A DNA stretch of 64,000 nucleotides. Origin: Comamonas serinivorans. Lineage in GTDB: Bacteria > Pseudomonadota > Gammaproteobacteria > Burkholderiales > Burkholderiaceae_C. This document shows positions 4,460 to 40,950 of this stretch, in pieces. The notes beneath the pieces were generated by a model. That model saw only the letters and a list, made by a program, of their open reading frames with translations, was not told the DNA's origin and did not search any database. The stretch spans positions 1,096,835 through 1,160,834 of the forward strand of contig NZ_CP021455.1 of assembly GCF_002158865.1 (NCBI RefSeq), given 5' to 3'. Numbering within the stretch: position 1 is the first letter of the stretch; every line of letters starts with the position of its first letter. The translations under genes and the position numbers were made by a program.

Positions 4460-4617
4460 ATGCATTGCGTGCGGATAAAGGGTGGCGCCATGCCGTCATG
4501 GCCAGCCATCCCGTCCCGGTGCCTCGGCCCCGCGCATGGGCTCAGGCACTTGGCCAGACGCCGACCCTACGGGCCGCCCGCCAACCGCAGACCCCCCATC
4601 GAGGTGGGTGCCGCCGG

Positions 4618-6603
4618 TCACTCGGGTGAGGGCGTCGGATCAGGGTGCCGCCTGCAGCCGTCAGTCGCCGGCTGCAACAGGTCTTGCACGCGTGCGCGCA
4701 TGGTCTCCAGCGTCTGCGCTTCGGGGGGCATGGCCTCGCCCACGCTCAGGCCCACCGGGCTGAAGGTCCCACGCCGGAATGGCTTGGTCATGGCGCCCGT
4801 GGGTTCGATGCGCGAGAAGTAGCTGCCCCAGAGGTTGGTCAGCGCCATGGGCACCACGGGCACGCTCAGGCCGTCGGCGCGCGCCTGCTCCAGGATCTTC
4901 AGCACCCCGCTCTTGAACGCACCCAGCTCGCCGTCGCGCGTGATGGCGCCTTCGGGGAAGATGGCCAGCAGCTCGCCTTCGCGCAGCACCTGGGCGGCTT
5001 CGACGAAGGCGCGCTCGTAGGCCGCGGGGTCGTCGCGTGCGGGGGCGATGGGGATGGCCTTGGCGAGCTTGAACAGCCAGCCCAGCACGGGCACCTTGAA
5101 GATCTGGTGGTCCATGATGAAGCGGATGGGCCGCGGGCTGGCCGCCATCAGCAGCACGGCGTCGATGAAGCTGACGTGGTTGGCGATGAGCACGGCCGGA
5201 CCGTCGGCCGGGATGTGGTCACGCCCGGTGATGCGGAAGCGGTACACCAGCTTGGTGAGCACCCAGGCGTGAAAGCGCAGCCAGTACTCGGGCACCAGGA
5301 AGAAGATGTAGGCCGCCACCAGCGCATTGGCGATGCCGGTGAACAGGAAGATCTGCGGGATGGAGAAGCCGGCCTGCAGCAGCGCGCCCGCGATCACGGC
5401 CGAGGCGATCATGAACAGCGCGTTGAGGATGTTGTTGGCCGCGATGATGCGCGCGCGGTGCGAGGGCCGGGCGCGCAGCTGGATGAGCGCGTACATGGGC
5501 ACGCTGAACAGGCCGGTGAACATCGACATCAGGCCCAGGTCGGCCATCACGCGCCAGTGCGCGCCCTGTTGCAGAAAGCCGCCCACGTCGAACAGGCCAC
5601 TGGCGGGCGGCGCGGGCAGGCTGCGCGTGGCGAAGAACAGGTCGATGGCGAACACCGTCATGCCGATGGCGCCCACGGGCACCAGCCCGATCTCGACCTG
5701 GTGGCCCGACAGCTTTTCGCACAGCAGCGCCCCCACGCCGATGCCGACCGAGAACACGGCCAGCAGCAGCGAGGCGACGTGGGCGTCGCAGTGCAGCACT
5801 TCTTTGGCAAAGGCCGGAAACTGGCTGAGGAACACAGCGCCGAAGAACCACATCCACGAGATGCCCAGCAGCGAGCGGAACACGGCCAGCTGCTCGTGCG
5901 CCAGGCGCAGGTTGCGCCAGGTTTCGGTCACAGGGTTCCAGTTCACCTGCAAGCCGGGGTCGGTGGCCGGCGACACAGGGATGAACTGCGCCGCAAGCCG
6001 CCCCAGCAGGGCCAGCACCACGCACGAGATGCCCACCCATTCGGGCCCCACCTGCGGCACCACCACCAGCACCCCGCCCACCAGCTGGCCCAGCAAGATG
6101 GCGACGAAGGTGCCCATTTCGACCATGCCGTTGCCGCCCGTCAGTTCGCGCTCGGACAGGTGCTGCGGCAGGTAGGCGAACTTCACCGGGCCGAACAGGG
6201 TGGAGTGCAGGCCCATGAGGAAGGTGCACAGCAGCAGCACCGGCACGTTGGCGCTGAAGAAGCCCCAGGCCGCCAGGGCCATGATGGCCACCTCCAGCCA
6301 TTTGACGAAGCGGATCAGCGCGCGCTTTTCCAGCTTGTCGGCCAGCTGGCCGCTGGTGGCCGAGAACACCAGATAGGGCAGGATGAACAGCGCGCCGATC
6401 ACCAGGCCCGCCATGTCGGCCGGCAGCCAGCTCACCTGCAGCATGTAGGTCACCATCACGGTGAACGCGAACTTGAAGAGGTTGTCGTTCGCGGCGCCGG
6501 CAAACTGGGTCCAAAAAAACGGCGCAAAGCGGCGCTGGCCCAGCAAGGCGAACTGCCCGGAGGGCGCTTGGCCGGCCTGGGCCTGGCGGGTCGATTCGGT
6601 CAT
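4618..6603 (-). CDS. MFS lysophospholipid transporter fused to 1-acyl-glycerol-3-phosphate (PlsC-type) acyltransferase domain
   Basis: 661 aa. N-terminal 12-TM MFS region. C-terminal HVSFIDAV...FPEGAITRDG acyltransferase motifs (HX4D, FPEG). ATG confirmed at 6603 (MTESTRQ). Confidence 0.8.
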   Translation of the reverse strand: MTESTRQAQAGQAPSGQFALLGQRRFAPFFWTQFAGAANDNLFKFAFTVMVTYMLQVSWLPADMAGLVIGALFILPYLVFSATSGQLADKLEKRALIRFVKWLEVAIMALAAWGFFSANVPVLLLCTFLMGLHSTLFGPVKFAYLPQHLSERELTGGNGMVEMGTFVAILLGQLVGGVLVVVPQVGPEWVGISCVVLALLGRLAAQFIPVSPATDPGLQVNWNPVTETWRNLRLAHEQLAVFRSLLGISWMWFFGAVFLSQFPAFAKEVLHCDAHVASLLLAVFSVGIGVGALLCEKLSGHQVEIGLVPVGAIGMTVFAIDLFFATRSLPAPPASGLFDVGGFLQQGAHWRVMADLGLMSMFTGLFSVPMYALIQLRARPSHRARIIAANNILNALFMIASAVIAGALLQAGFSIPQIFLFTGIANALVAAYIFFLVPEYWLRFHAWVLTKLVYRFRITGRDHIPADGPAVLIANHVSFIDAVLLMAASPRPIRFIMDHQIFKVPVLGWLFKLAKAIPIAPARDDPAAYERAFVEAAQVLREGELLAIFPEGAITRDGELGAFKSGVLKILEQARADGLSVPVVPMALTNLWGSYFSRIEPTGAMTKPFRRGTFSPVGLSVGEAMPPEAQTLETMRARVQDLLQPATDGCRRHPDPTPSPE

Positions 6604-27512: not shown

Positions 27513-27883
27513 GGCGAGGTCCTTGGCAAAAACCGACGGCTGACGAGGGACGGGCACGGCGGGCATGCCGTGCGCGGGTTCACTGCCCGGCCAGCTTTGC
27601 AAGCCTGGGCGGCCGAGGCTGTGCTTTAGGCGTCAGCGCAGGCCGCAGATGCCGTGCCTGGCCGGTGGCGAACGCCCGCCTGCGGCCGCGGAGCGCGCGG
27701 CGGCCAGGCGGACTAAAATCACCGGCTTCGCACCAAGGAGCGCTGCAGTTGGCCCAGGCCTTGCCTGGCCGGGCCTGTCAGGCTTGGTGCGGAACGTGTC
27801 GCGCCGGCCACGCCTGCGCTGGCGCGTGGTGTCAACGGCGCTCACCTGTTGTGTTGCTTGTCGGTTTTTTGCAGGTGAGTGTG

Positions 27884-32930: not shown

Positions 32931-33045
32931 GCACCGCGGCAATGGGCGGGAATCGAACCCGCAGCCGCCACCGAAGTCGCGGTGTTCAACCATGAACAAG
33001 TCTTGGACCGAAACCAAGCGTCACCTCAGCCCATCCGCGGCATAC
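32931..33045 (-). ncRNA. second tRNA-like structured element (canonical T-arm GCGGG-TTCGATT-CCCGC, anticodon-like hairpin CTTGG-TTTCGGT-CCAAG, extra hairpins, closing CCGCGG stem)
   Basis: Read on the minus strand. Lies about 80 nt downstream of the minus-strand sigma-54 promoter. No CCA or canonical acceptor, so it is not a standard tRNA gene. Confidence 0.45.
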
Positions 33046-33312: not shown

Positions 33313-34965
33313 ATGAAACCCATTCACGTCATCACCTTCCTGGGCACCCAGCTGGACAGCGGCAACGGTGCCGGCCGCTGGGAGAAGTGGCGGCCCACCG
33401 TGGCGCTGACCCAGCACGAGGACATGGAGGTCGCGCGGCTGGACCTGCTGCTGACCGGGCCCAGCCACCGGGCGCTGGCCGAGCGCGTGCGCGCCGACAT
33501 CGGCACGGTGTCGCCCGCCACCGAGGTCGTGCTGCACGAGTTGGCCGTGGACGATCCCTGGGACTTCGACGTCGTCTACACGCAGCTGTTCGATTGGGCC
33601 CGCGCGCAGGCCTTCGATACCGAGGCCGCGCAGTACTGGGCGCACATCACCACCGGCACGCATGTGGCGCAGATCTGCCTGTTCCTGCTGACCGAGTCGC
33701 GCGTGCTGCCCGGGGTGCTGTGCCAGACCTCGCCGCCCAAGCGGCAGCGCGAGGGCGCGGCCGGTGCCTACACGCTGATCGACCTCGACCTCTCGCGCTA
33801 CGACGCCATCGCCCAGCGCCATGCGGCCGACCAGCGCGATGCAGTGGCCTTCCTGAAAAGCGGCATCGCCACGCGCAATGCGCGCTTCAACGCGCTCATC
33901 GACGAGGTCGAGCGCGTGGCCGTGCGCTCCACCGCGCCGGTGCTGTTCGTGGGGCCCACGGGCGCGGGCAAGTCCTTCCTGGCCCGGCGCATGCACGAGC
34001 TGAAGAAATCGCGCCACCAGATCAACGGCGCCTTCGTCGAAGTCAACTGCGCCACGCTGCGTGGCGACGGCGCGGCCTCGACGCTGTTCGGCCACAAGCG
34101 CGGTGCTTTCACCGGCGCCGCCACCGACCGGCCCGGCCTGCTGCGCGCCGCCGATGGTGGGCTGCTGTTCCTCGACGAAATCGGCGAGCTGGGGGCCGAC
34201 GAGCAGGCCATGCTGCTCATGGCCATCGAAGACAAGCGCTTCTACCCCCTGGGTTCGGACCGCGAGGTGACCAGCGACTTTCAGCTGGTGGCGGGCACCA
34301 ACCGCGACCTGCGCGCCGAGGTCGCCGCGGGGCGGTTTCGCGAAGACCTGTTCTCGCGCATCAACCTGTGGACCTACGAGCTGCCTGGCCTGGCGGGCCG
34401 GCCTGAGGACATCGAACCCAACGTCGACTACCTGCTCACCCGCCATGCGCAAGCCTCGCGCCGCGCGGCCCGCTTCAACGTCGAAGCGCGCCGCGCCTAC
34501 CTGCGCTTTGCGCAAAGCGGCGAAGCGCTGTGGCGCGGCAATTTCCGCGACCTGTATGCCAGCGTGACGCGCCTGGCGACCCTGGCCGAGGGCGGGCGCA
34601 TCACCGAGCCGCTGGTGGTGGCTGAGATCAAACGGCTGCGCTGGATGTGGACGCGCGACAGCGCGGTGGCGGCGCCCGGCGCGCGCGCCTCGGGGGGCTC
34701 GCCGGGGGCGATGGCGGTCGATGCGGCGAGCGTGGACCTGGCCGACTTCTACGACGAAGCGGCCCTGGAGCAGATCGACCTGTTCGACCGCGTGCAGCTG
34801 CAGGGCGTCATCGCGGTGTGCCAGCGCTCGCGCACGCTGTCGGACGCGGGGCGCCAGCTGTACCAGGCCTCGCGGGCGCAACGCGCGGCGTTGAACGATT
34901 CGGACCGCCTGCGCAAGTACCTGGCCAAGTTCAACCTGAGCTGGGACCGCGTCAGCACACGATGA
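33313..34965 (+). CDS. rtcR: sigma-54-dependent transcriptional regulator RtcR (N-terminal CARF-like domain + AAA+ sigma-54 activator + C-terminal HTH)
   Basis: Walker A GPTGAGKS, GAFTGA sigma-54 contact motif, RtcR-specific N-terminal domain (VITFLGTQLD...WRPTVAL), C-terminal HTH. Confidence 0.9.
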   Translation: MKPIHVITFLGTQLDSGNGAGRWEKWRPTVALTQHEDMEVARLDLLLTGPSHRALAERVRADIGTVSPATEVVLHELAVDDPWDFDVVYTQLFDWARAQAFDTEAAQYWAHITTGTHVAQICLFLLTESRVLPGVLCQTSPPKRQREGAAGAYTLIDLDLSRYDAIAQRHAADQRDAVAFLKSGIATRNARFNALIDEVERVAVRSTAPVLFVGPTGAGKSFLARRMHELKKSRHQINGAFVEVNCATLRGDGAASTLFGHKRGAFTGAATDRPGLLRAADGGLLFLDEIGELGADEQAMLLMAIEDKRFYPLGSDREVTSDFQLVAGTNRDLRAEVAAGRFREDLFSRINLWTYELPGLAGRPEDIEPNVDYLLTRHAQASRRAARFNVEARRAYLRFAQSGEALWRGNFRDLYASVTRLATLAEGGRITEPLVVAEIKRLRWMWTRDSAVAAPGARASGGSPGAMAVDAASVDLADFYDEAALEQIDLFDRVQLQGVIAVCQRSRTLSDAGRQLYQASRAQRAALNDSDRLRKYLAKFNLSWDRVSTR

Positions 34966-35133: not shown

Positions 35134-35802
35134 ATGGCGCAGTACATCGAGGTCATTGGACAGGCCAGCGTGAGCGAAGTGGCCGTGGAGCAGCGCGTGG
35201 CGCTGACGGTGTCGCACCGCGGCAAGGGCGGTGGCATGTCGGACAAGGTGGTGGCGCACAAGGCCACGCAGCAGCGTGAGCGGGTGATCGCCACGCTGCT
35301 GGCCCACGGCATGCGGGAGCACGAATTGCATGAGGGCGGCATGGACAGCGGCACCTGGCACTTCAAGCGCAAGCGCGAGGTGCACCACAGCCACCGCATC
35401 CTGCTGATCTGCGAGGACGACGCGCGCCTGTTTGCGGCCCTCGAGGCCCTGGCGCCGCTGCAGGACGAGGGCGAGCTTGACTTGCAACTGGACATGCTGG
35501 ACGCCCGCTACGAGGTGCCGGCCGGTGCGCTGAGCGGGGCGCAGCAGGCGGCGGTGGCGCATGCCCGTGAGCATGCGAATGGCCTGGCGCAGGCTGCCGG
35601 CGTGGCGCTGGGCGCGGTGGTGCAGGTGCAAGAGCTGGCGCCGGCGCGGGAGCGTTCGGGTGCCTATGGCGAGTCCTGGTATGGCTTGGCCGCCGCAGGC
35701 GGCGCGGCTGCGGCACCGGCCATGACCCTCTTGGCGAGTAACCAGCGCACGCGCACCTTGAGCTACCGCGTGCGCTTTGCGCTGCAGCGGGCTGTGCCCT
35801 GA
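35134..35802 (+). CDS. SIMPL/DUF541-like protein without signal peptide
   Basis: IEVIGQASVSEVAVEQRVALTV repeat-like start. RBS GGAGAGGGAG. Confidence 0.45.
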   Translation: MAQYIEVIGQASVSEVAVEQRVALTVSHRGKGGGMSDKVVAHKATQQRERVIATLLAHGMREHELHEGGMDSGTWHFKRKREVHHSHRILLICEDDARLFAALEALAPLQDEGELDLQLDMLDARYEVPAGALSGAQQAAVAHAREHANGLAQAAGVALGAVVQVQELAPARERSGAYGESWYGLAAAGGAAAAPAMTLLASNQRTRTLSYRVRFALQRAVP

Positions 35803-35882
35803 CGCGCGTCGTTCGCCGCAACGCCTGGGCCGCGGTGGCCTGAATGTCGGTCCGACCGTGCACTGGGCAGGACGTGGGGCCA

Positions 35883-35917
35883 GTGAATCGCCTGCAACGC
35901 CCCTGCAGACGATTCAT
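35883..35917 (+). promoter_or_regulatory. inverted repeat TGAATCGCCTGCA-N7-TGCAGACGATTCA, candidate enhancer (UAS) about 110-140 bp upstream of the sigma-54 promoter at 36026
   Basis: 13-bp arms. Contains GATTCA as in the CTTGATTCAT motif. Confidence 0.4.
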
Positions 35918-36025
35918 GGGCGGGCGTAGAGTTCGCATCGAAAGCGATACAGTGGGATCGTGTTCGGCGGTCATGGTGGCGTGCAGCCCTGCTGTCGCCC
36001 TGGGGTGAAGCGGGATGGGCCGAAC

Positions 36026-36041
36026 TGGCACGGCCGTTGCG
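36026..36041 (+). promoter_or_regulatory. sigma-54 (-24/-12) promoter TGGCAC-GGCCG-TTGC
   Basis: Perfect match to TGGCAC-N5-TTGC. Lies 224 bp downstream of the SIMPL-like gene and immediately upstream of the tRNA-like element. Confidence 0.7.
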
Positions 36042-36058
36042 AAGGATGAGGTGAACGT

Positions 36059-36146
36059 GGGCCCAGGTCTGGGGTGGCGCAAAGCGAGCGCGTCGGACTT
36101 GAATCCGAAGGGTGCTGGTGCAAGTCCAGCCCCCAGACCTGGGCCC
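36059..36146 (+). ncRNA. tRNA-like (Y-RNA-like) structured element with 16-bp acceptor-like stem
   Basis: GGGCCCAGGTCTGGGG (36059-74) pairs perfectly with CCCCAGACCTGGGCCC (36131-46). Interior folds as TG / D-arm GCGC-AAAGCGA-GCGC / G / anticodon-like TCGGA-CTTGAA-TCCGA / variable AGGGT / T-arm GCTGG-TGCAAGT-CCAGC. No CCA. Confidence 0.6.
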
Positions 36147-36422
36147 GCGAAACCCGGGGGCGCGACGGCGCGAGGCAGGCCTTGACGCGGCGGCCGTGTC
36201 GGCAAGGGTGCAGCGAGAAGCGGCTACCAGGCCGGTTGCCACGCATCGCAGCCCGTCGGCCAGCCCGACCGGCAGGGGATGAGGTCAGGTGTGCAACGGT
36301 CTGGCGCAGTTCAAGGAGAACGCCCGACCATGCATCGGGAAGGTGCTGGACAAGCCAGCCGCCAGACCGTTGCGCATGGGCCAGTCCCCGTCCCGATCCA
36401 CACGAACACAGGGAGAGCGGCC

Positions 36423-39320
36423 ATGGGCCAGCACGACGAAGAGCACTCACCGGACGCCGGTGAGCACCCGGTGCCGCCGGCGCATGCGGCATCCGGGCTT
36501 GCCCAGGCGAACCCGGGCTGGGCAGCCGGCCAGCTTGCACGCGCCCGTGCGGCTTTGGCACAGGCACAGGTACAGCGGGACCCGTCAGGGCCCGACGCGG
36601 CCGGCGCTGCGTCATCCGCGGATACCGACGCTGCAGGCCACGCCGTGGCGCGTGCGCTGGCCAAGGTGAATGCCTGGCGCCAGGCCTTGGCCGGCATGGC
36701 CAGTGGCGAGCTGCAGGTGGGGTCGCGCACGCCGCTGCGCAACGTGGCGGCCTGGCTCACGCCGAATGTGTTGCACGGCGGATTCGCCTCGGGCCAGCTG
36801 ATGGCCGGGGGGCGCGCGCAAGCACACGAGACGCACTGGCTGGCGCAACTGGCGGCCGGTCAGCCGCTGGGCAGCACGCCGACCGACTGTGCCCGGATGG
36901 CCACGCTGGCGGCACAGCCCGTGGACCGCAGCACGCTGCCCCAGAAGCTGGACCGCACGCCGCTGAACGACTGGTTCCTGACCGAGGCGGGCCTGCAGCA
37001 GCTGATGCAGTGGCTGGACGACGGCCGCTGGCGCATCGCCGTGCCCGAGGAGGGCGCCTTGCTGGTGGTGGCCTGGCTGCTGAGGCAGGGGCATGACACC
37101 TCGGCGGCCCGCCTGTTGGACACCCTGTCGCCCTACTGGCACCGCGTTCGCTTTTACCCGCAGCCCGCTGCGACGCCCATGCCGGCGCTCGACCGCGTGA
37201 GCCTGCGCAGCGCGCAGGACGTGATGGCGCAGTTGAACCAGCTGCAGACGCCGCCCGCGGTGCTGGCCCAGCACCAAGCCATCCACGTGTGGCGCCCCTT
37301 GCTCGACGAGCTGGTGCTGCTGTGGCTGCAGGCCGTGCCCGGCGCGCTGCACGGCCCTGACGCTGCCGCGGCCCATGGCGAATCCGGGCGAGGTGCCGAC
37401 GGCGCCGTGACGGATGCGCTGCCGCGCCTGCGTGCCGGCACGCGCGAGGCCGAAGGCGGCTTGCCCCTGGCCGAGCCCGACGCCGACTGGCGGCAGCAGG
37501 CGGCGGCCTGGCGCCTGCGGGCGCGCGAGGCCGAGGCGCAGCACACGCGCAGCCGGGCGCACCGCAAGCCCGGCTCGCACGTGGCGCAGTTGTGGGCCAT
37601 GCTGGACCAGGTGCTGCAAGGTCAGGCCCTGAGCGAGGCACAGCGCCGCCGGCTGCGCTTTGTGCTGGCGTGCCAGGTCAGCGCCCATGGCGTGCCAGGC
37701 GATGCGAGGCACCACACCTGGCGCGCCGCGCAACGGGCGCAGACCGACACCGTGTGGCGCGCCCACTGGGCGTACGCACTGGCCGCGCGCGTGCAGGCGC
37801 AGGGCCCCTACGCGCTGGGCGATGGCCTGCCGGATCTGGACACCGCGCTGCAAGCTGCCACGGCGCAAGAGGCACAACAACATGCGCACCTGCCCGAAGG
37901 CACCGTGGTCTGGCCCAGCCTGCGCCGCAAGCTGCGCCGCGCCCACTTGGCCACCGTGCCGCAGCTGGTGCAAGCCGGCATCGTGCCGTCGAGCGAGGTG
38001 CTGGCCAGCGTGCTGCCCGGCACCACGGGCGCACAGCTGGCGCGCACCATGCCCGATGCGGCCAGCGCGCGGCTGCTGGGCGCGCTGTGGCGTGCGTTTC
38101 GCGGGCGACGCTCGGTGCTGCTGCTGAACCACGAGTCGCAGGTGCGCTTTCACGAGCTGCCCTGGGTGCTGCGCTTGCAGCAGCACGCCTGCGTGCCGGC
38201 GACGGCCGCCGGGACCGAGGGCGATTCGGCACATCGCTGGGACATGGCCGGCCTGGCGCGCAGCCAGGCGTTGGCGCAGCTGGATGCGGCCGCGCGCCTG
38301 GCGCTGACGCAATTCCCGCAATCGGCCTTCCCGAACCCGCTGCTGTGGGAGCTTCGCGCGCTGGCCGAGCAGGGTGGCTGGCAGCCGCCGTGGGTCGAAG
38401 ACATCGCGGCCGACATCTTCATGGGCAGCTTTGGGCCCAAGTTCGGGCAGGCCGTGCACGACGCGCTGCCCTGGTTGCAGGGCAGCCTGTATGCGCAGCA
38501 TTTCCAGCTCGACCTGGAGGCGCTGCGCCTGGCCATGGCGCCGGCCGTGGCCTGCCACGCGGCCTTTCAGCGTTACGCCGAAACGCCAGCGGGCTCACCC
38601 GGCAACCCCGCGGCCAAGCGCGAACAACAGGCCTTGCTGCAGCGCTATCACGCGGCGCCCGACCTGCTGGTGGCGCACCTGCGTGCGCGCACGGGCTGGT
38701 CGGCCGACGCCCGCGGCGTGGGCGCGAATGGCGCCGTCATCGAGCAGATGGGCCTGGTCAGCACGGCCAACTTCGCGCCGCTGGCGCAGCGCTTTGGCTG
38801 GGGCGTGGCCGGTGCCGGTTTGCGCGATGCCACGGCCCAGGCGCGCGAGCTCCAGGGGTGGGCGCAGGCCGCACGCACGGGCTTCGAGCGGCTGTGCGCG
38901 GGGCTGGACCTGGGCGTGCGCGAAGCCGGCGCCATGCTGGACAAGCCGCCAACCCAGATCCAGGCGACAAACCCGGCGGATGCCCATGCGGCAGCGACAG
39001 AAGCCCAGGCCGCCGACCGCCTGCTGGCCGAGCGCGTGCGCCGGGCCGCCACCAGCTGGCGCCAGGTCGTGCTGCTGCTGAGCCTGCTGCCCGCCGAGCA
39101 GCAGCGCGCCAACCTGCTGGGCATGCAGCGCCACCTCGCGGCCTGTGACACCCCCGCCAGCCGGGGCGTGACGCGCGCCCTGGCGCCCCAGCTGGCCGAC
39201 CTGATGGCCTGTGTGCAAGGCCAGGCGCGCGACGCCGGTCGGCCACCGTTCCACGGCTGGACCCAGCCAGGGCAGCGGGGCGTGCTGTTCACCCTGCGCC
39301 AGGGCCTGAAGGCCGGGTGA
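36423..39320 (+). CDS. large (about 965 aa) Ala/Leu/Arg/Trp-rich protein of unknown function in the rtc locus
   Basis: Uninterrupted frame with strong GC3 bias throughout. The antisense 648-aa ORF is rejected. Possible starts at 36279, 36330 and 36423; 36423 has the best RBS (AGGGAGAG). No catalytic motif recognised. Confidence 0.6.
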   Translation: MGQHDEEHSPDAGEHPVPPAHAASGLAQANPGWAAGQLARARAALAQAQVQRDPSGPDAAGAASSADTDAAGHAVARALAKVNAWRQALAGMASGELQVGSRTPLRNVAAWLTPNVLHGGFASGQLMAGGRAQAHETHWLAQLAAGQPLGSTPTDCARMATLAAQPVDRSTLPQKLDRTPLNDWFLTEAGLQQLMQWLDDGRWRIAVPEEGALLVVAWLLRQGHDTSAARLLDTLSPYWHRVRFYPQPAATPMPALDRVSLRSAQDVMAQLNQLQTPPAVLAQHQAIHVWRPLLDELVLLWLQAVPGALHGPDAAAAHGESGRGADGAVTDALPRLRAGTREAEGGLPLAEPDADWRQQAAAWRLRAREAEAQHTRSRAHRKPGSHVAQLWAMLDQVLQGQALSEAQRRRLRFVLACQVSAHGVPGDARHHTWRAAQRAQTDTVWRAHWAYALAARVQAQGPYALGDGLPDLDTALQAATAQEAQQHAHLPEGTVVWPSLRRKLRRAHLATVPQLVQAGIVPSSEVLASVLPGTTGAQLARTMPDAASARLLGALWRAFRGRRSVLLLNHESQVRFHELPWVLRLQQHACVPATAAGTEGDSAHRWDMAGLARSQALAQLDAAARLALTQFPQSAFPNPLLWELRALAEQGGWQPPWVEDIAADIFMGSFGPKFGQAVHDALPWLQGSLYAQHFQLDLEALRLAMAPAVACHAAFQRYAETPAGSPGNPAAKREQQALLQRYHAAPDLLVAHLRARTGWSADARGVGANGAVIEQMGLVSTANFAPLAQRFGWGVAGAGLRDATAQARELQGWAQAARTGFERLCAGLDLGVREAGAMLDKPPTQIQATNPADAHAAATEAQAADRLLAERVRRAATSWRQVVLLLSLLPAEQQRANLLGMQRHLAACDTPASRGVTRALAPQLADLMACVQGQARDAGRPPFHGWTQPGQRGVLFTLRQGLKAG

Positions 39321-39710
39321 GCAGGTCGGGTGAGGTCAGGTGAAGCCAGCGGGGCCATGGGGCCCCATCTTCCAGGTTGGCCCGAATGGTGACCGTGGGT
39401 CTGGGTGCCGGTGCTGCCGCCCCAGGCGTTCGCTGTGGGCGCCTGGCGGACTGGCGCCGAGGAACGGAGGAGCTTGCGCGACAATCCGGCATCCGGTCCG
39501 GGCGAGGCTCGCTAGGACATGGCCATGGCGCGCGGCGGTCAGCACGCGGCGGTGTCGGCCCCGCAGCCGCGCGATCCCGGTGGTCGGGTGCAAGTGCCCT
39601 GTCGGCTTGCGTTCCACGCCAACAGGCCTGCTGCCGTGCCTCGTGCCATGTCAACCGTTGCTTGACGGTCGGCGGGCCCCGTGCCCACGCCGTGTTGTTC
39701 AGAAGTACCC

Positions 39711-40454
39711 ATGCCTTTACGCATCGACGAAGCCATCACCCAGCTGGATCACGGCTGGCTCAGCCATTTGAAATCGCAGGGTTACGGCGGCGATGCCTTG
39801 CGCCAGGCGATCGACCTGGTGCTGTACGCCCAACAGCAGGCGGCGGCGCGCAACAGCGCCGAGTTCAAGGCCGCCATCGCGCGCGTCAACCACCTGGTGG
39901 GGGCGGGCATCGCGTGTGACAACAACGGCGACTACCTGTACACGGCCGAGTGGCGCGACCCGGCTTGCGCCGGGCTGGGCTTCGCCATCGAATACGCGGC
40001 CGACCCGGCCAGCTGGCGGGCCGAGTTCCGCATGCCCGGCTGCTGGCCGCACACCGTGGACAACCTCGACATCACCGACACCCGCGCTGTGGACCACGAC
40101 TTTGCGCTCTGGCTGGCGCGCGCCAGTGCCCGCCATTTCACGCACCTGATCGAACGCCAGCTGCCCGAAGGCGAAGCACTGCGCGCGCCCTGTACGGCGG
40201 CCGTGCGGGCCGGCACCTGGGCCGAATTCGTGTGCCTGCACCCACTGCAACCCGTGGCCCGCCTGGGGCACGAGCGGCTGGAGCAGGCCGCCTGGTCGGC
40301 CCAATACCCCAGTGCCGCCCAGCGCGAGTTGCAGGCCCGCTTCGATGTGCAGAGCGCCTTGCTGCTGCGCTTGATCGTGGTTCAGCAGGCAGCATGGGCT
40401 TGGCATGAAGAGTATGGCGACAATCGCGATGACGATTCAACGGGAAGGCATTGA
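39711..40454 (+). CDS. hypothetical protein (248 aa)
   Basis: Good GC3. C-terminus and stop are supplied by an inserted palindromic repeat unit. Confidence 0.45.
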   Translation: MPLRIDEAITQLDHGWLSHLKSQGYGGDALRQAIDLVLYAQQQAAARNSAEFKAAIARVNHLVGAGIACDNNGDYLYTAEWRDPACAGLGFAIEYAADPASWRAEFRMPGCWPHTVDNLDITDTRAVDHDFALWLARASARHFTHLIERQLPEGEALRAPCTAAVRAGTWAEFVCLHPLQPVARLGHERLEQAAWSAQYPSAAQRELQARFDVQSALLLRLIVVQQAAWAWHEEYGDNRDDDSTGRH

Positions 40455-40462: not shown

Positions 40463-40814
40463 TTGATGTGGCGCTTGCTGAGGGCTGCTTGCCCGACACC
40501 GGAAGGCTGGCGTCGACGCAGGGACATGACGCGTGGCCAGCGGTGCATGGGCTCGCCAGCCGCCCGCACAGCGCCCCCAACCCGCTGACTGGGCGTCCTG
40601 ATGCAGCAGGCCTGGCTCGACCTGCCCGTGCTCTTTCGCCTGCATGCGCAGGCGCGTGGCCAACAGGTGGCGCAGCCCGAGCGGGCCGATGGGGTGTTCG
40701 CCATCCAGGGCACGGCCAGCGCGCAGCCTCACACCGTCCGAGACGGACCGCATCCGGGCCGATTGCCTGTGAAGGCGGGCTTGCAAGGGGCGCTGCATGG
40801 ATCGCTGGCGCGCT

Positions 40815-40828: not shown

Positions 40829-40934
40829 AGTTTGGCTTGCGGTGGCTGAGCCGTGGCGAGGCGCAGGCGCCCTCGACGCCAAGTGCTTGATCCGGCAAGG
40901 GTTTGCGCGGCTCGCCTGTTGATTTGGCGGGGCC

Positions 40935-40950
40935 TGGCACGCCGCGTGCA
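40935..40950 (+). promoter_or_regulatory. sigma-54 promoter TGGCAC-GCCGC-GTGCA upstream of rtcA
   Basis: GG/GC spacing correct, one mismatch at -14. About 38 bp upstream of the rtcA ATG. Confidence 0.6.

Follow-up and report, generated by a model that had tools for sequence, protein, structure and literature searches.

The rtc locus of Comamonas serinivorans raises the question of what occupies the long interval between the regulator gene rtcR and the cyclase gene rtcA, and whether it takes the place of the RNA ligase RtcB. We studied this locus in a 64-kb stretch of the genome (69.7% G+C), referred to as the window, whose positions serve as coordinates unless another locus is named. On the + strand, the order is rtcR, an open reading frame (ORF) resembling the SIMPL/DUF541 family, a sigma-54 promoter, two tRNA-like RNAs, a large gene that we call BIG, an ORF for 247 aa, and rtcA. 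All elements that a preliminary description of this DNA had listed for the rtc locus were recovered at or near the same positions by Pfam, NCBIfam, and Rfam searches and by a promoter scan. It had missed the second tRNA-like RNA (cloverleaf at 36300-36368), a second promoter (40935-40949), and a gene remnant (40589-40769).

We propose that the tRNA-like RNAs (mimics, below) and BIG constitute one tRNA-mimic RNA-protein module, which is placed here under RtcR/sigma-54 control and serves as an accessory of the tRNA-damage response; we put the probability of this reading at roughly one half. The module itself consists of 1 to 4 dedicated tRNA mimics directly 5' of an all-alpha protein of ~800 aa and occurs in many phyla. 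In the window, its parts are as follows:

36026-36040, + strand: predicted sigma-54 promoter 1 (-24 TGGCAC / -12 TTGC), before the tRNA-like RNAs and BIG
36057-36150, + strand: tRNA-like RNA A, cloverleaf at 36068-36139, acceptor stem continued by ~11 further bp with the flanks
36290-36378, + strand: tRNA-like RNA B, cloverleaf at 36300-36368, acceptor stem extended by ~11 bp
36423-39320, + strand: BIG (CCO03_04750), 965 aa, almost all-alpha, undescribed family

A tRNA-like RNA directly precedes BIG across phyla

Loci from 80 genomes were fetched via the BIG protein alone, and in most of them ARAGORN placed a tRNA-like gene shortly ahead of BIG in the same orientation. A covariance model was built from 38 of these upstream elements. 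In the covariance alignment, 99.6% of cells are paired and 17 of 21 pairs show compensatory changes, values reached by none of 500 shuffles; the upstream RNA is a real structure under selection. With the covariance model, a tRNA-like element was found directly upstream of BIG, on the same strand, in 71 of the 80 genomes. The tRNA-like RNA, which had earlier been taken for a feature of the rtc locus of the Y RNA kind, is instead the constant partner of BIG.

The reciprocal test started from the RNA. A metagenome scan by a T-arm pattern only returned 120 loci, mostly with ordinary tRNAs, as the pattern is unspecific. Among the 15 loci with elements scoring at least 76 bits, 13 carry BIG immediately 3', and the other two hold a normal tRNA-Thr (L190, 78.6 bits) and a pair of tRNA-like elements (L164). 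The link between RNA and BIG thus holds in both directions, from RNA to protein and from protein to RNA, and the adjacency is very likely real. The metagenomic pair in L164 (727-894) scores 73 and 88 bits and represents the sole clear exception in this test; one of its members has an unusual D arm and CAU as anticodon.

Copy number and spacing were tabulated for 75 loci, with the window and its relatives counted in addition to loci from genomes. One mimic is present in 55 loci, two in 19, and four in 1, so that tandem copies occur in 20 of the 75; the window carries two. The last mimic lies 0-2 nt from the ATG in 53 loci, all of them actinobacterial ("...CACGTCGGC tt ATG"), and usually 8-32 nt from it in other phyla. 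Two Massilia loci have no ATG nearby, with a GTG start 26 nt downstream of the mimic. In the window and its two closest relatives (the window clade), the gap amounts to 37-57 nt and includes a Shine-Dalgarno sequence.

This spacing introduces a serious, though on the whole unlikely, alternative, according to which the tRNA-like elements are expression signals of the BIG mRNA and not partners of the protein. They could act as "tRNA punctuation," with excision by RNase P and RNase Z yielding a leaderless or near-leaderless mRNA, or as a translational operator occluding the start codon; in either version, the function of BIG need not involve a tRNA-shaped RNA. An ATG within 2 nt of the element in the actinobacterial loci, and within ~32 nt or less in nearly all others outside the window clade, is what such a leader would predict. 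The same is true of the genomes that keep BIG without an element and of the unconstrained anticodon described below, which is expected where only shape matters for processing. However, processing could be served by any tRNA, yet the elements form one specific sequence family, whose conservation extends from Actinobacteria to Proteobacteria, Planctomycetes, and Cyanobacteria and which is found almost only ahead of BIG. Moreover, a leader needs neither tandem copies (2-4) nor the CCA ends that are encoded in several lineages. In the window clade, finally, stems are extended by 8-12 bp, the discriminator is not free, and a normal Shine-Dalgarno sequence lies at a distance of 37-57 nt; the argument from a leaderless mRNA fails there, and the elements are retained all the same.

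Well-known tRNA-shaped elements of this kind are the E. coli thrS operator, an autoregulatory leader that mimics tRNA, and MALAT1/mascRNA, where a tRNA-like structure directs 3'-end processing. They share with the BIG element a tRNA shape located at a translation start or RNA processing site. Unlike them, the BIG element is a full cloverleaf that occurs in 1-4 tandem copies and across phyla, and it is tied to a single protein family, which is not among the known tRNA-binding enzymes.

The mimics combine a conserved body with a variable anticodon

Two sequence types were distinguished among the mimics. The Gram-negative type has canonical D and T loops and a U1-A72 start, and its CCA is often encoded. 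The actinobacterial type starts with C1-G72 and has neither GG18-19 nor CCA, and its T loop reads GGCGGAA instead of TTCGAAT, so that T54-Psi55-C56 is absent. Within each type, the stems as well as C32, U33, and A38 are near-invariant, and positions 34-37 are the most variable columns (entropy of 1.4-1.9 bits). The anticodons seen include CGG, UCC, CGA, CUG, CCA, GCA, UUU, GUA, and UCA, and several copies have 6-nt loops. Anticodons that vary this freely, UCA and the 6-nt loops among them, rule out a decoding role; compared with a genuine decoding tRNA, the elements have the cloverleaf but, taken overall, not the anticodon identity, the canonical loops, or the free 3' end.

The elements might nevertheless be functional, if unusual, tRNAs that BIG uses in (aminoacyl-)tRNA form as a dedicated substrate or cofactor, in the manner of some peptide-modifying enzymes. 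Their complete cloverleaf is in line with this, as are the canonical D and T loops and frequently encoded CCA of the Gram-negative copies. We consider it very unlikely, since the anticodon is unconstrained and includes UCA, which would read UGA, next to 6-nt loops, while the actinobacterial copies lack GG18-19 and T54-Psi55-C56, the window copies have no free 3' end owing to their extended stems, and BIG is unlike known tRNA-dependent enzymes.

Between close Streptomyces loci, coding sequences are 92-95% identical and third codon positions 86-91%; in the same comparison, as many as 4 of the 4 positions of the anticodon region can differ, with RNA bodies that are 98-100% identical. This suggests that anticodons turn over faster than neutral sites, although the evidence is only suggestive because the changes may be whole-cassette events. 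Tandem arrays of 2-4 mimics with 4-nt spacers were seen in L029 (9641-9973), L015, L034, L046, L055, L058, and L075 (9820-9971). In related strains, copies with the same anticodon can occupy different array positions (for example, the CTCA copy, distal in L046, is proximal in L015), which suggests that whole mimic copies are gained and lost.

A body that is frozen while its anticodon is free to change may be the trace of an arms race against toxins that cleave tRNA. The mimics could be bait, with anticodon loops evolving fast to match the toxins around; cleaved bait bearing a 2',3'-cyclic phosphate would feed RtcR, and BIG would sense, protect, or dispose of it. Such a decoy or sentinel would be consistent with anticodon positions changing faster than third codon positions between close relatives, with tandem copies that differ in anticodon, with the linkage of the module to repair systems for cleaved tRNA (see below), with the activation of RtcR by tRNA fragments (PMC7790460), and with the weak resemblance of the neighboring 247-aa protein to toxin-immunity proteins. 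However, the variation may also stem from cassette turnover or a plain lack of constraint, and the 6-nt loops of several copies have no counterpart among tRNAs. Furthermore, the Streptomyces neighborhood is syntenic in 12 loci, with no other defense- or conflict-type genes seen there, and BIG is absent from phages and nearly so from plasmids. In the window, the bait would itself depend on RtcR and could not be the primary sensor. We consider a bait function distinctly improbable as the explanation of the module.

The arrangement also recalls the type III toxin-antitoxin system ToxIN, in which tandem RNA repeats lie upstream of the gene for a small endoRNase toxin. In both cases, tandem structured RNA units are located directly upstream of a protein gene and co-transcribed with it, as judged for BIG from the sequence. 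In contrast to ToxIN, most BIG loci have a single unit, and BIG is a helical protein of ~800 aa and not a small endoribonuclease, with no PADLOC match and no match to a nuclease fold. Its location in Streptomyces is, moreover, chromosomal and syntenic.

The RNAs of the window clade sit on long terminal helices

RNA A scores 52.8 bits with the Rfam tRNA model and 75.8 bits with covariance model R1, and ARAGORN reports it as "tRNA-???" with an irregular anticodon loop. RNA B, the cloverleaf of which ends 54 nt before the BIG start codon, was missed by both Rfam and ARAGORN; R1 gives it 61.5 bits, a score that has to be read in light of the sequence itself being part of the seed alignment. The extended stem of RNA A was seen in the fold and in the pairing check, with covariation in the two closest relatives (L081 and L082), and the minimum free energy fold of RNA B is likewise a cloverleaf on a long stem, with counterparts in both relatives. 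Throughout the window clade, the acceptor stems of both copies are prolonged by 8-12 covarying bp, the "discriminator" position included. This extension was absent from the six other lineages tested. The D and T loops of the window copies are non-canonical. Judged by sequence, the RNAs of the window clade resemble a tRNA domain set on a long terminal helix. Since these prolonged paired stems leave no free 3' end, ordinary pre-tRNA-type processing is not expected in this clade.

In an Rfam scan of 35800-36450, only tRNA exceeded its gathering score, and the other hits, up to an E-value of 10, were far-sub-threshold chance matches. An identity as Y RNA or YrlA was rejected, as no such family appeared at E-values up to 10 in this interval and the topology is that of a standard cloverleaf. 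The comparison with Ro60 and its Y RNAs is instructive all the same. In Salmonella, the rsr-yrlBA-rtcBA arrangement places Ro60 (Rsr) and the Y RNAs YrlA and YrlB in an RtcR-controlled rtc operon (PMC4201824, PMC7790460). As in the window, a protein and a tRNA-mimicking RNA are encoded side by side in RtcR/sigma-54 operons, with the RNA 5' in some species, and the mimic of the window clade, though of this clade only, rests like a Y RNA on a long 5'/3' stem. Unlike Ro60, BIG has neither the TROVE (HEAT-ring) nor the vWA_Ro60 domain and no similarity to the Ro60 fold, whereas the true Ro60 proteins of two BIG loci (L020 and L082) match these domains. The mimics have ordinary tRNA topology, in contrast to YrlA, where the acceptor-like stem is a closed stem-loop (PMC4201824). 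The BIG module of the window therefore comprises neither a TROVE/vWA protein nor a Y RNA of YrlA topology. Ro60 and BIG occur together in L020 and L082 and are thus not alternatives. No Ro60 was found in the window by tblastn with two Ro60 queries.

BIG is a widespread all-alpha protein family of single architecture

The strong coding signal noted earlier for the large ORF was confirmed, with G+C at third codon positions of 0.85-0.95 from ~36600 onward. The ATG at 36423 is backed by N-termini conserved among relatives at 55-63% identity, and the NCBI annotation is shorter (891 aa, CCO03_04750). Neither as a single sequence nor as a profile did BIG match Pfam, NCBIfam, PADLOC, PHROG, or PDB sequences, and its confident AlphaFold2 model had no fold match in the PDB. 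The statement that the ORF is undescribed and has no recognizable catalytic motif thus stands, and the structural comparison proposed in the preliminary description did not lead to a known fold. In particular, neither an RtcB domain or fold nor any other ligase, nucleotidyltransferase, or catalytic signature was detected in BIG.

A word-indexed search returned 39 matches to BIG, and an exhaustive search yielded ~1,860 clusters at 50% identity. Of the best 150 among these 1,860 clusters, 148 have 700-850 residues, with a near full-length match and a single architecture, and this uniformity ruled out domain fusions as a clue to function. Members come from Actinobacteria, Beta- and Gammaproteobacteria, Myxococcota, Planctomycetota, Verrucomicrobiota, and Acidobacteriota as well as from Chloroflexota, Cyanobacteria, Armatimonadota, and Rhodothermales. 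Conserved motifs include GSRTP..W.T..V..GGFATG, VPEEGALLVVAWLL, AFRRRRSLLLLN...Q...ELPW, E.AADIFMG, NG.VIEQ.Q.LTTHNLA, and AYAWRQ; they contain many invariant arginines, and no catalytic signature was recognized in them. In phage genomes, BIG had no match, and the only 7 matches on plasmids were all to actinobacterial megaplasmids; a mobile-element origin was rejected on these grounds.

Several kinds of RNA-repair operon have acquired the module independently

An RNA-repair system lies within a few genes of BIG in five independent lineages out of ~27 non-actinobacterial lineages sampled; four of them have the system and BIG on one strand. Of the five, three are Rtc loci, one is a Pnkp-Hen1-RlaP locus, and one combines an RNA ligase with an AAA_33 kinase. 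By chance, ~2% of loci would be expected, supposing a background of ~0.1% RNA-repair genes, which was assumed and not computed. Several kinds of RNA-repair operon have thus picked up the module independently.

The first of the five lineages is that of the window itself, with two close relatives from metagenomes (63% and 55% identity) that show the order rtcR, sigma-54 promoter, two mimics, BIG, a 250-aa ORF, a ~730-aa ORF, and rtcA; in L082, Ro60 is found near the BIG locus. In Chloracidobacterium (L008), the order is rtcR | DUF6847, two ORFs, RtcB, RtcA, a mimic, and BIG, and in a metagenome-assembled genome (MAG) of Pirellulaceae (L020), it is rtcR | Ro60, RtcB, two mimics, and BIG; in both, BIG closes an rtc operon that encodes RtcB. 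A MAG of Rhodothermales (L031) carries Hen1-RlaP-RlaP-Pnkp-BIG on a mobile element, with BIG last and without a mimic. In Massilia, BIG is flanked on one side by an EF-G paralogue and two EFG_IV mini-proteins and on the other by a convergent pair of AAA_33 kinase and RNA_ligase genes. Two side observations concern these loci: the RtcB of L008 (6717-8669) carries an intein (Pfam Intein_splicing, E-value of 7e-20), and the Massilia loci L088 (4223-7792) and L076 (6744-9277) encode the EF-G paralogue, a 176-aa ORF, and two small proteins consisting of EF-G domain IV only directly upstream of the mimics and BIG, with the kinase and ligase genes downstream. Domain IV of EF-G is itself a mimic of the tRNA anticodon arm.

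A survey of genomic context had been suggested to see whether the large protein co-occurs with rtcR and rtcA. It lies near rtcR in the three Rtc lineages; most loci, however, are without rtc, and a close general link to rtc was not borne out, as most homologues lie near no rtc or RNA-repair gene. Among the ~55 actinobacterial loci, none has an RNA-repair neighbor. In a Pfam census of 128 neighbors in 23 non-actinobacterial loci, RNA-repair families appeared only sporadically, and all-against-all clustering of the ORFs from 80 loci revealed no protein partner shared beyond close relatives. A conserved protein partner was therefore rejected for the family as a whole. In Streptomyces, BIG has a conserved chromosomal neighborhood (12 loci with the same flanking genes), in which an MFS transporter and a GntR regulator adjoin.

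The preliminary description had suggested that the large protein may be an RNA-repair or RNA-damage-response component that replaces or complements RtcB. Its RNA-repair neighbors in five lineages sustain the former part of this idea; replacement is contradicted by the co-occurrence of BIG with RtcB and Pnkp. A new RNA-joining or RNA-repair enzyme in RtcB's stead would suit a window without RtcB, as already stated in that description and confirmed here by tblastn with two divergent RtcB queries (from L020 and L008), and it would suit the position of BIG between rtcR and rtcA behind a sigma-54 promoter. However, BIG has RtcB as a neighbor in L008 and L020 and the Pnkp ligase in L031, shows no ligase, nucleotidyltransferase, or other catalytic signature or fold match, and has most of its homologues far from any rtc gene, and RtcB may be encoded elsewhere in the 4.5-Mb genome. 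We regard such a substitution as barely credible. In our reading, BIG is neither an RNA ligase nor a replacement of RtcB; since it occurs beside RtcB (L008, L020) and Pnkp (L031), it is to be viewed as an accessory.

Accessory genes are known to accrete around RNA-repair cores (PMC6514570, PMC12776372). BIG resembles accessories such as RlaP, PrfH, archease, and Hen1 in that it is found, like RlaP, beside RtcB, Pnkp, and Rnl-type ligases (PMC12776372, PMC6514570). It differs from them in bringing its own RNA gene, in occurring mostly outside repair operons, and in having no recognizable enzymatic domain.

The module of the window is predicted to be controlled by RtcR and sigma-54

The remaining features of the rtc locus in the window are the following:

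33313-34965, + strand: rtcR, CARF-type RtcR domain plus sigma-54 AAA+ activator
35134-35802, + strand: SIMPL/DUF541-like ORF (CCO03_04740), PF04402 with an E-value of 8e-11
39711-40454, + strand: 247-aa ORF (CCO03_04755), 248 codons including the stop
40589-40769, + strand: gene remnant, C-terminal ~60 codons of a ~730-aa gene, with a frame break
40935-40949, + strand: predicted sigma-54-type promoter 2, TGGCAC-N5-GTGC with one mismatch, 39 nt before the rtcA start codon
40988-42193, + strand: rtcA, RNA 3'-terminal phosphate cyclase, Pfam RTC with an E-value of 5e-74

The rtcR product matches Pfam RtcR (E-value of 6e-76) and Sigma54_activat (5e-49) as well as the NCBIfam equivalog RNA_repair_RtcR (787.8 bits, cut-off of 650), and the rtcA product matches the NCBIfam equivalog NF003246 (373 bits, cut-off of 352). 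Of the constituents of an RtcR-regulated rtc locus, RtcR, a sigma-54 promoter (by sequence match), and RtcA are thus present, and RtcB is missing from the operon. In the canonical rtc operon, rtcR is divergent from rtcB-rtcA. The window locus shares with it RtcR, sigma-54 promoters, and RtcA; it differs in that rtcR is co-directional, rtcB is absent from the 64 kb, and two separate sigma-54 promoters are accompanied by ~6 kb of extra sequence between rtcR and rtcA.

The sigma-54 promoter that had been noted next to rtcR, ahead of the large ORF, proved to be a perfect consensus: TGGCAC-N5-TTGC at 36026-36040 is the sole perfect match in the window. It precedes the base of the first tRNA-like stem by 16 nt, and equivalent sites precede the tRNA-like RNAs in L081 (position 3) and L082 (position 9727). 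Promoter 2 is kept at the same place in L081 (6867) and L082 (16366). A CAAGTGCTTG motif at 40880-40889, ~50-60 nt upstream of promoter 2, recurs in L081 (~6810) and L082 (~16305) and may be a candidate site for RtcR or IHF; upstream of promoter 1, this motif was not found.

The rtc operon is induced via RtcR by damaged tRNAs or tRNA fragments (PMC7790460). As the module lies behind its own sigma-54 promoter next to rtcR, RtcR should switch on the module and rtcA upon tRNA damage. RtcR dependence, processing of the RNAs, binding of BIG to RNA, and a role in repair are what we infer for this locus, in the following way. In the Comamonas lineage, the module and a lineage-specific 247-aa protein would have been inserted between rtcR and rtcA together with a separate sigma-54 promoter. 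Damaged tRNA would render RtcR active, leading to sigma-54 transcription from 36026; the transcript would begin at the base of the first long stem and carry both mimics, BIG, and probably the 247-aa ORF, and the second RtcR/sigma-54 promoter would drive rtcA. The mimics may then be cut out of the transcript. In actinobacteria, tRNA-processing enzymes would excise them and leave a leaderless BIG mRNA, and in the window clade, the long extended stems may instead be targets of a double-strand RNase. BIG would bind the tRNA body independently of the anticodon, with its own mimics, nicked cellular tRNAs, or both as ligands. Within the tRNA-damage response, BIG and the mimics could serve as sentinel, decoy, or scaffold, following the logic of Ro60 and Y RNA without homology to them.

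In a broader and more tentative form, with odds somewhat against it, the module would be a ribonucleoprotein found in at least 8 phyla, in which a tRNA mimic with an anticodon evolving faster than neutral sites and an ~800-aa protein lacking a detected PDB fold match survey or buffer damage to the tRNA pool, and which Rtc, Pnkp/Hen1, and Rnl operons have recruited more than once as an accessory. With equal reserve, we suggest that it may do so, for example, as bait for anticodon nucleases, and that it may amount to the Ro60-Y RNA principle having been invented a second time, independently.

Several observations weigh against a dedicated RNA-protein module with a role in the tRNA-damage response. 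Most BIG loci, including all actinobacterial ones, are without RNA-repair neighbors. BIG lacks a recognizable RNA-binding or catalytic domain, its binding to RNA is something we infer, and its fold lends no support, as the AlphaFold2 model is unmatched. BIG occurs without a mimic in 9 of the 80 genomes and also in L085, L087, and L031, and the RNA must therefore be dispensable or encoded elsewhere. The tight spacing to the start codon is accounted for equally well by a purely cis-acting leader. The covariance model separates mimics imperfectly from true tRNAs, as the tRNA-Thr of L190 shows with its 78.6 bits, and the L164 pair precedes an ECF sigma-factor gene and not BIG. Finally, one-mismatch sigma-54 sites are no more common in the window than by chance, so that the case for the promoters depends on where they lie and on their conservation.

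The module is new in that neither Rfam nor Pfam has a family for it and no description was found; full-text searches of the literature, which did not cover Burroughs & Aravind 2016 (NAR 44:8525), returned none of the pair of tRNA mimic and BIG. If the pairing is functional, the mimics would constitute a new and widespread class of bacterial non-coding RNA that is absent from Rfam, and BIG a large protein family that is new to Pfam and has no detected PDB fold match. If the proposal is true, both would be tied to RNA-damage responses, where the signals and accessory factors of Rtc remain poorly understood. Testable handles are offered by the RNA-protein pair in the tractable genera Streptomyces, Variovorax, and Massilia and by the predicted RtcR-dependent promoter. 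As regards annotation, the elements are currently likely to be labeled as ordinary or "undetermined" tRNA genes.

Lineage-specific genes and minor elements of the window

The SIMPL-like and 247-aa ORFs, which had been counted among the parts of the locus in the preliminary description, are not general components, as only 3 and 9 homologues, respectively, were found among 5.8 billion sequences. The SIMPL ORF belongs to the SIMPL/DUF541 family (43 bits with PF04402, cut-off of 25.2, full profile covered), and no signal peptide was seen by eye from this ATG. It is missing from the loci of the relatives, and in L082, nothing equivalent lies between rtcR and the promoter; it is a narrow addition specific to its lineage. 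The 247-aa ORF is a real gene, with copies in the two relatives that are 80% and 68% identical, and weakly resembles a toxin-immunity protein. Found behind BIG only in a Comamonadaceae-like clade, it is likewise a narrow lineage-specific addition. Neither of these ORFs nor BIG matched the PADLOC models and thus a known anti-phage defense system. The gap between BIG and the 247-aa ORF (39321-39710, 390 nt) is without a called gene, predicted terminator, or obvious promoter; in the relatives, the gap after BIG is similar in size and has only the final ~20 nt in common with that of the window (TTGTTCAGAAGTACCC).

The remnant at 40589-40769 was detected by tblastn with the proteins of L081 and L082 (E-values of 6e-8 and 1e-4, residues 672-732). 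In these relatives, the intact ~730-aa gene lies between the 250-aa ORF and rtcA (4543-6741 in L081 and 14028-16208 in L082), and a homologue adjoins BIG in a Pyrinomonadaceae genome (L062, 12415-14676, - strand). The intact protein matches the phage family phrog_33734 (function unassigned), and its C-terminal part looks TerD-like by eye, yet without a Pfam match. In L081, the gene has its own sigma-54-like site at position 4485.

The window's sole further Rfam matches above the gathering score are an S-adenosylhomocysteine (SAH) riboswitch at 27729-27850 (+ strand, 48 bits) and the Burkholderia-type small RNA Bcj11 at 5794-5915 (- strand, 69 bits). A weak tRNA-like match (R1, 19.9 bits, E-value of 0.0075) is located just upstream of rtcR on the opposite strand (32938-33006, - strand); its canonical T arm is intact (GCGGGTTCGATTCCCGC) and its acceptor stem is broken, and it may represent a fragment of a tRNA or the scar of an old integration event.

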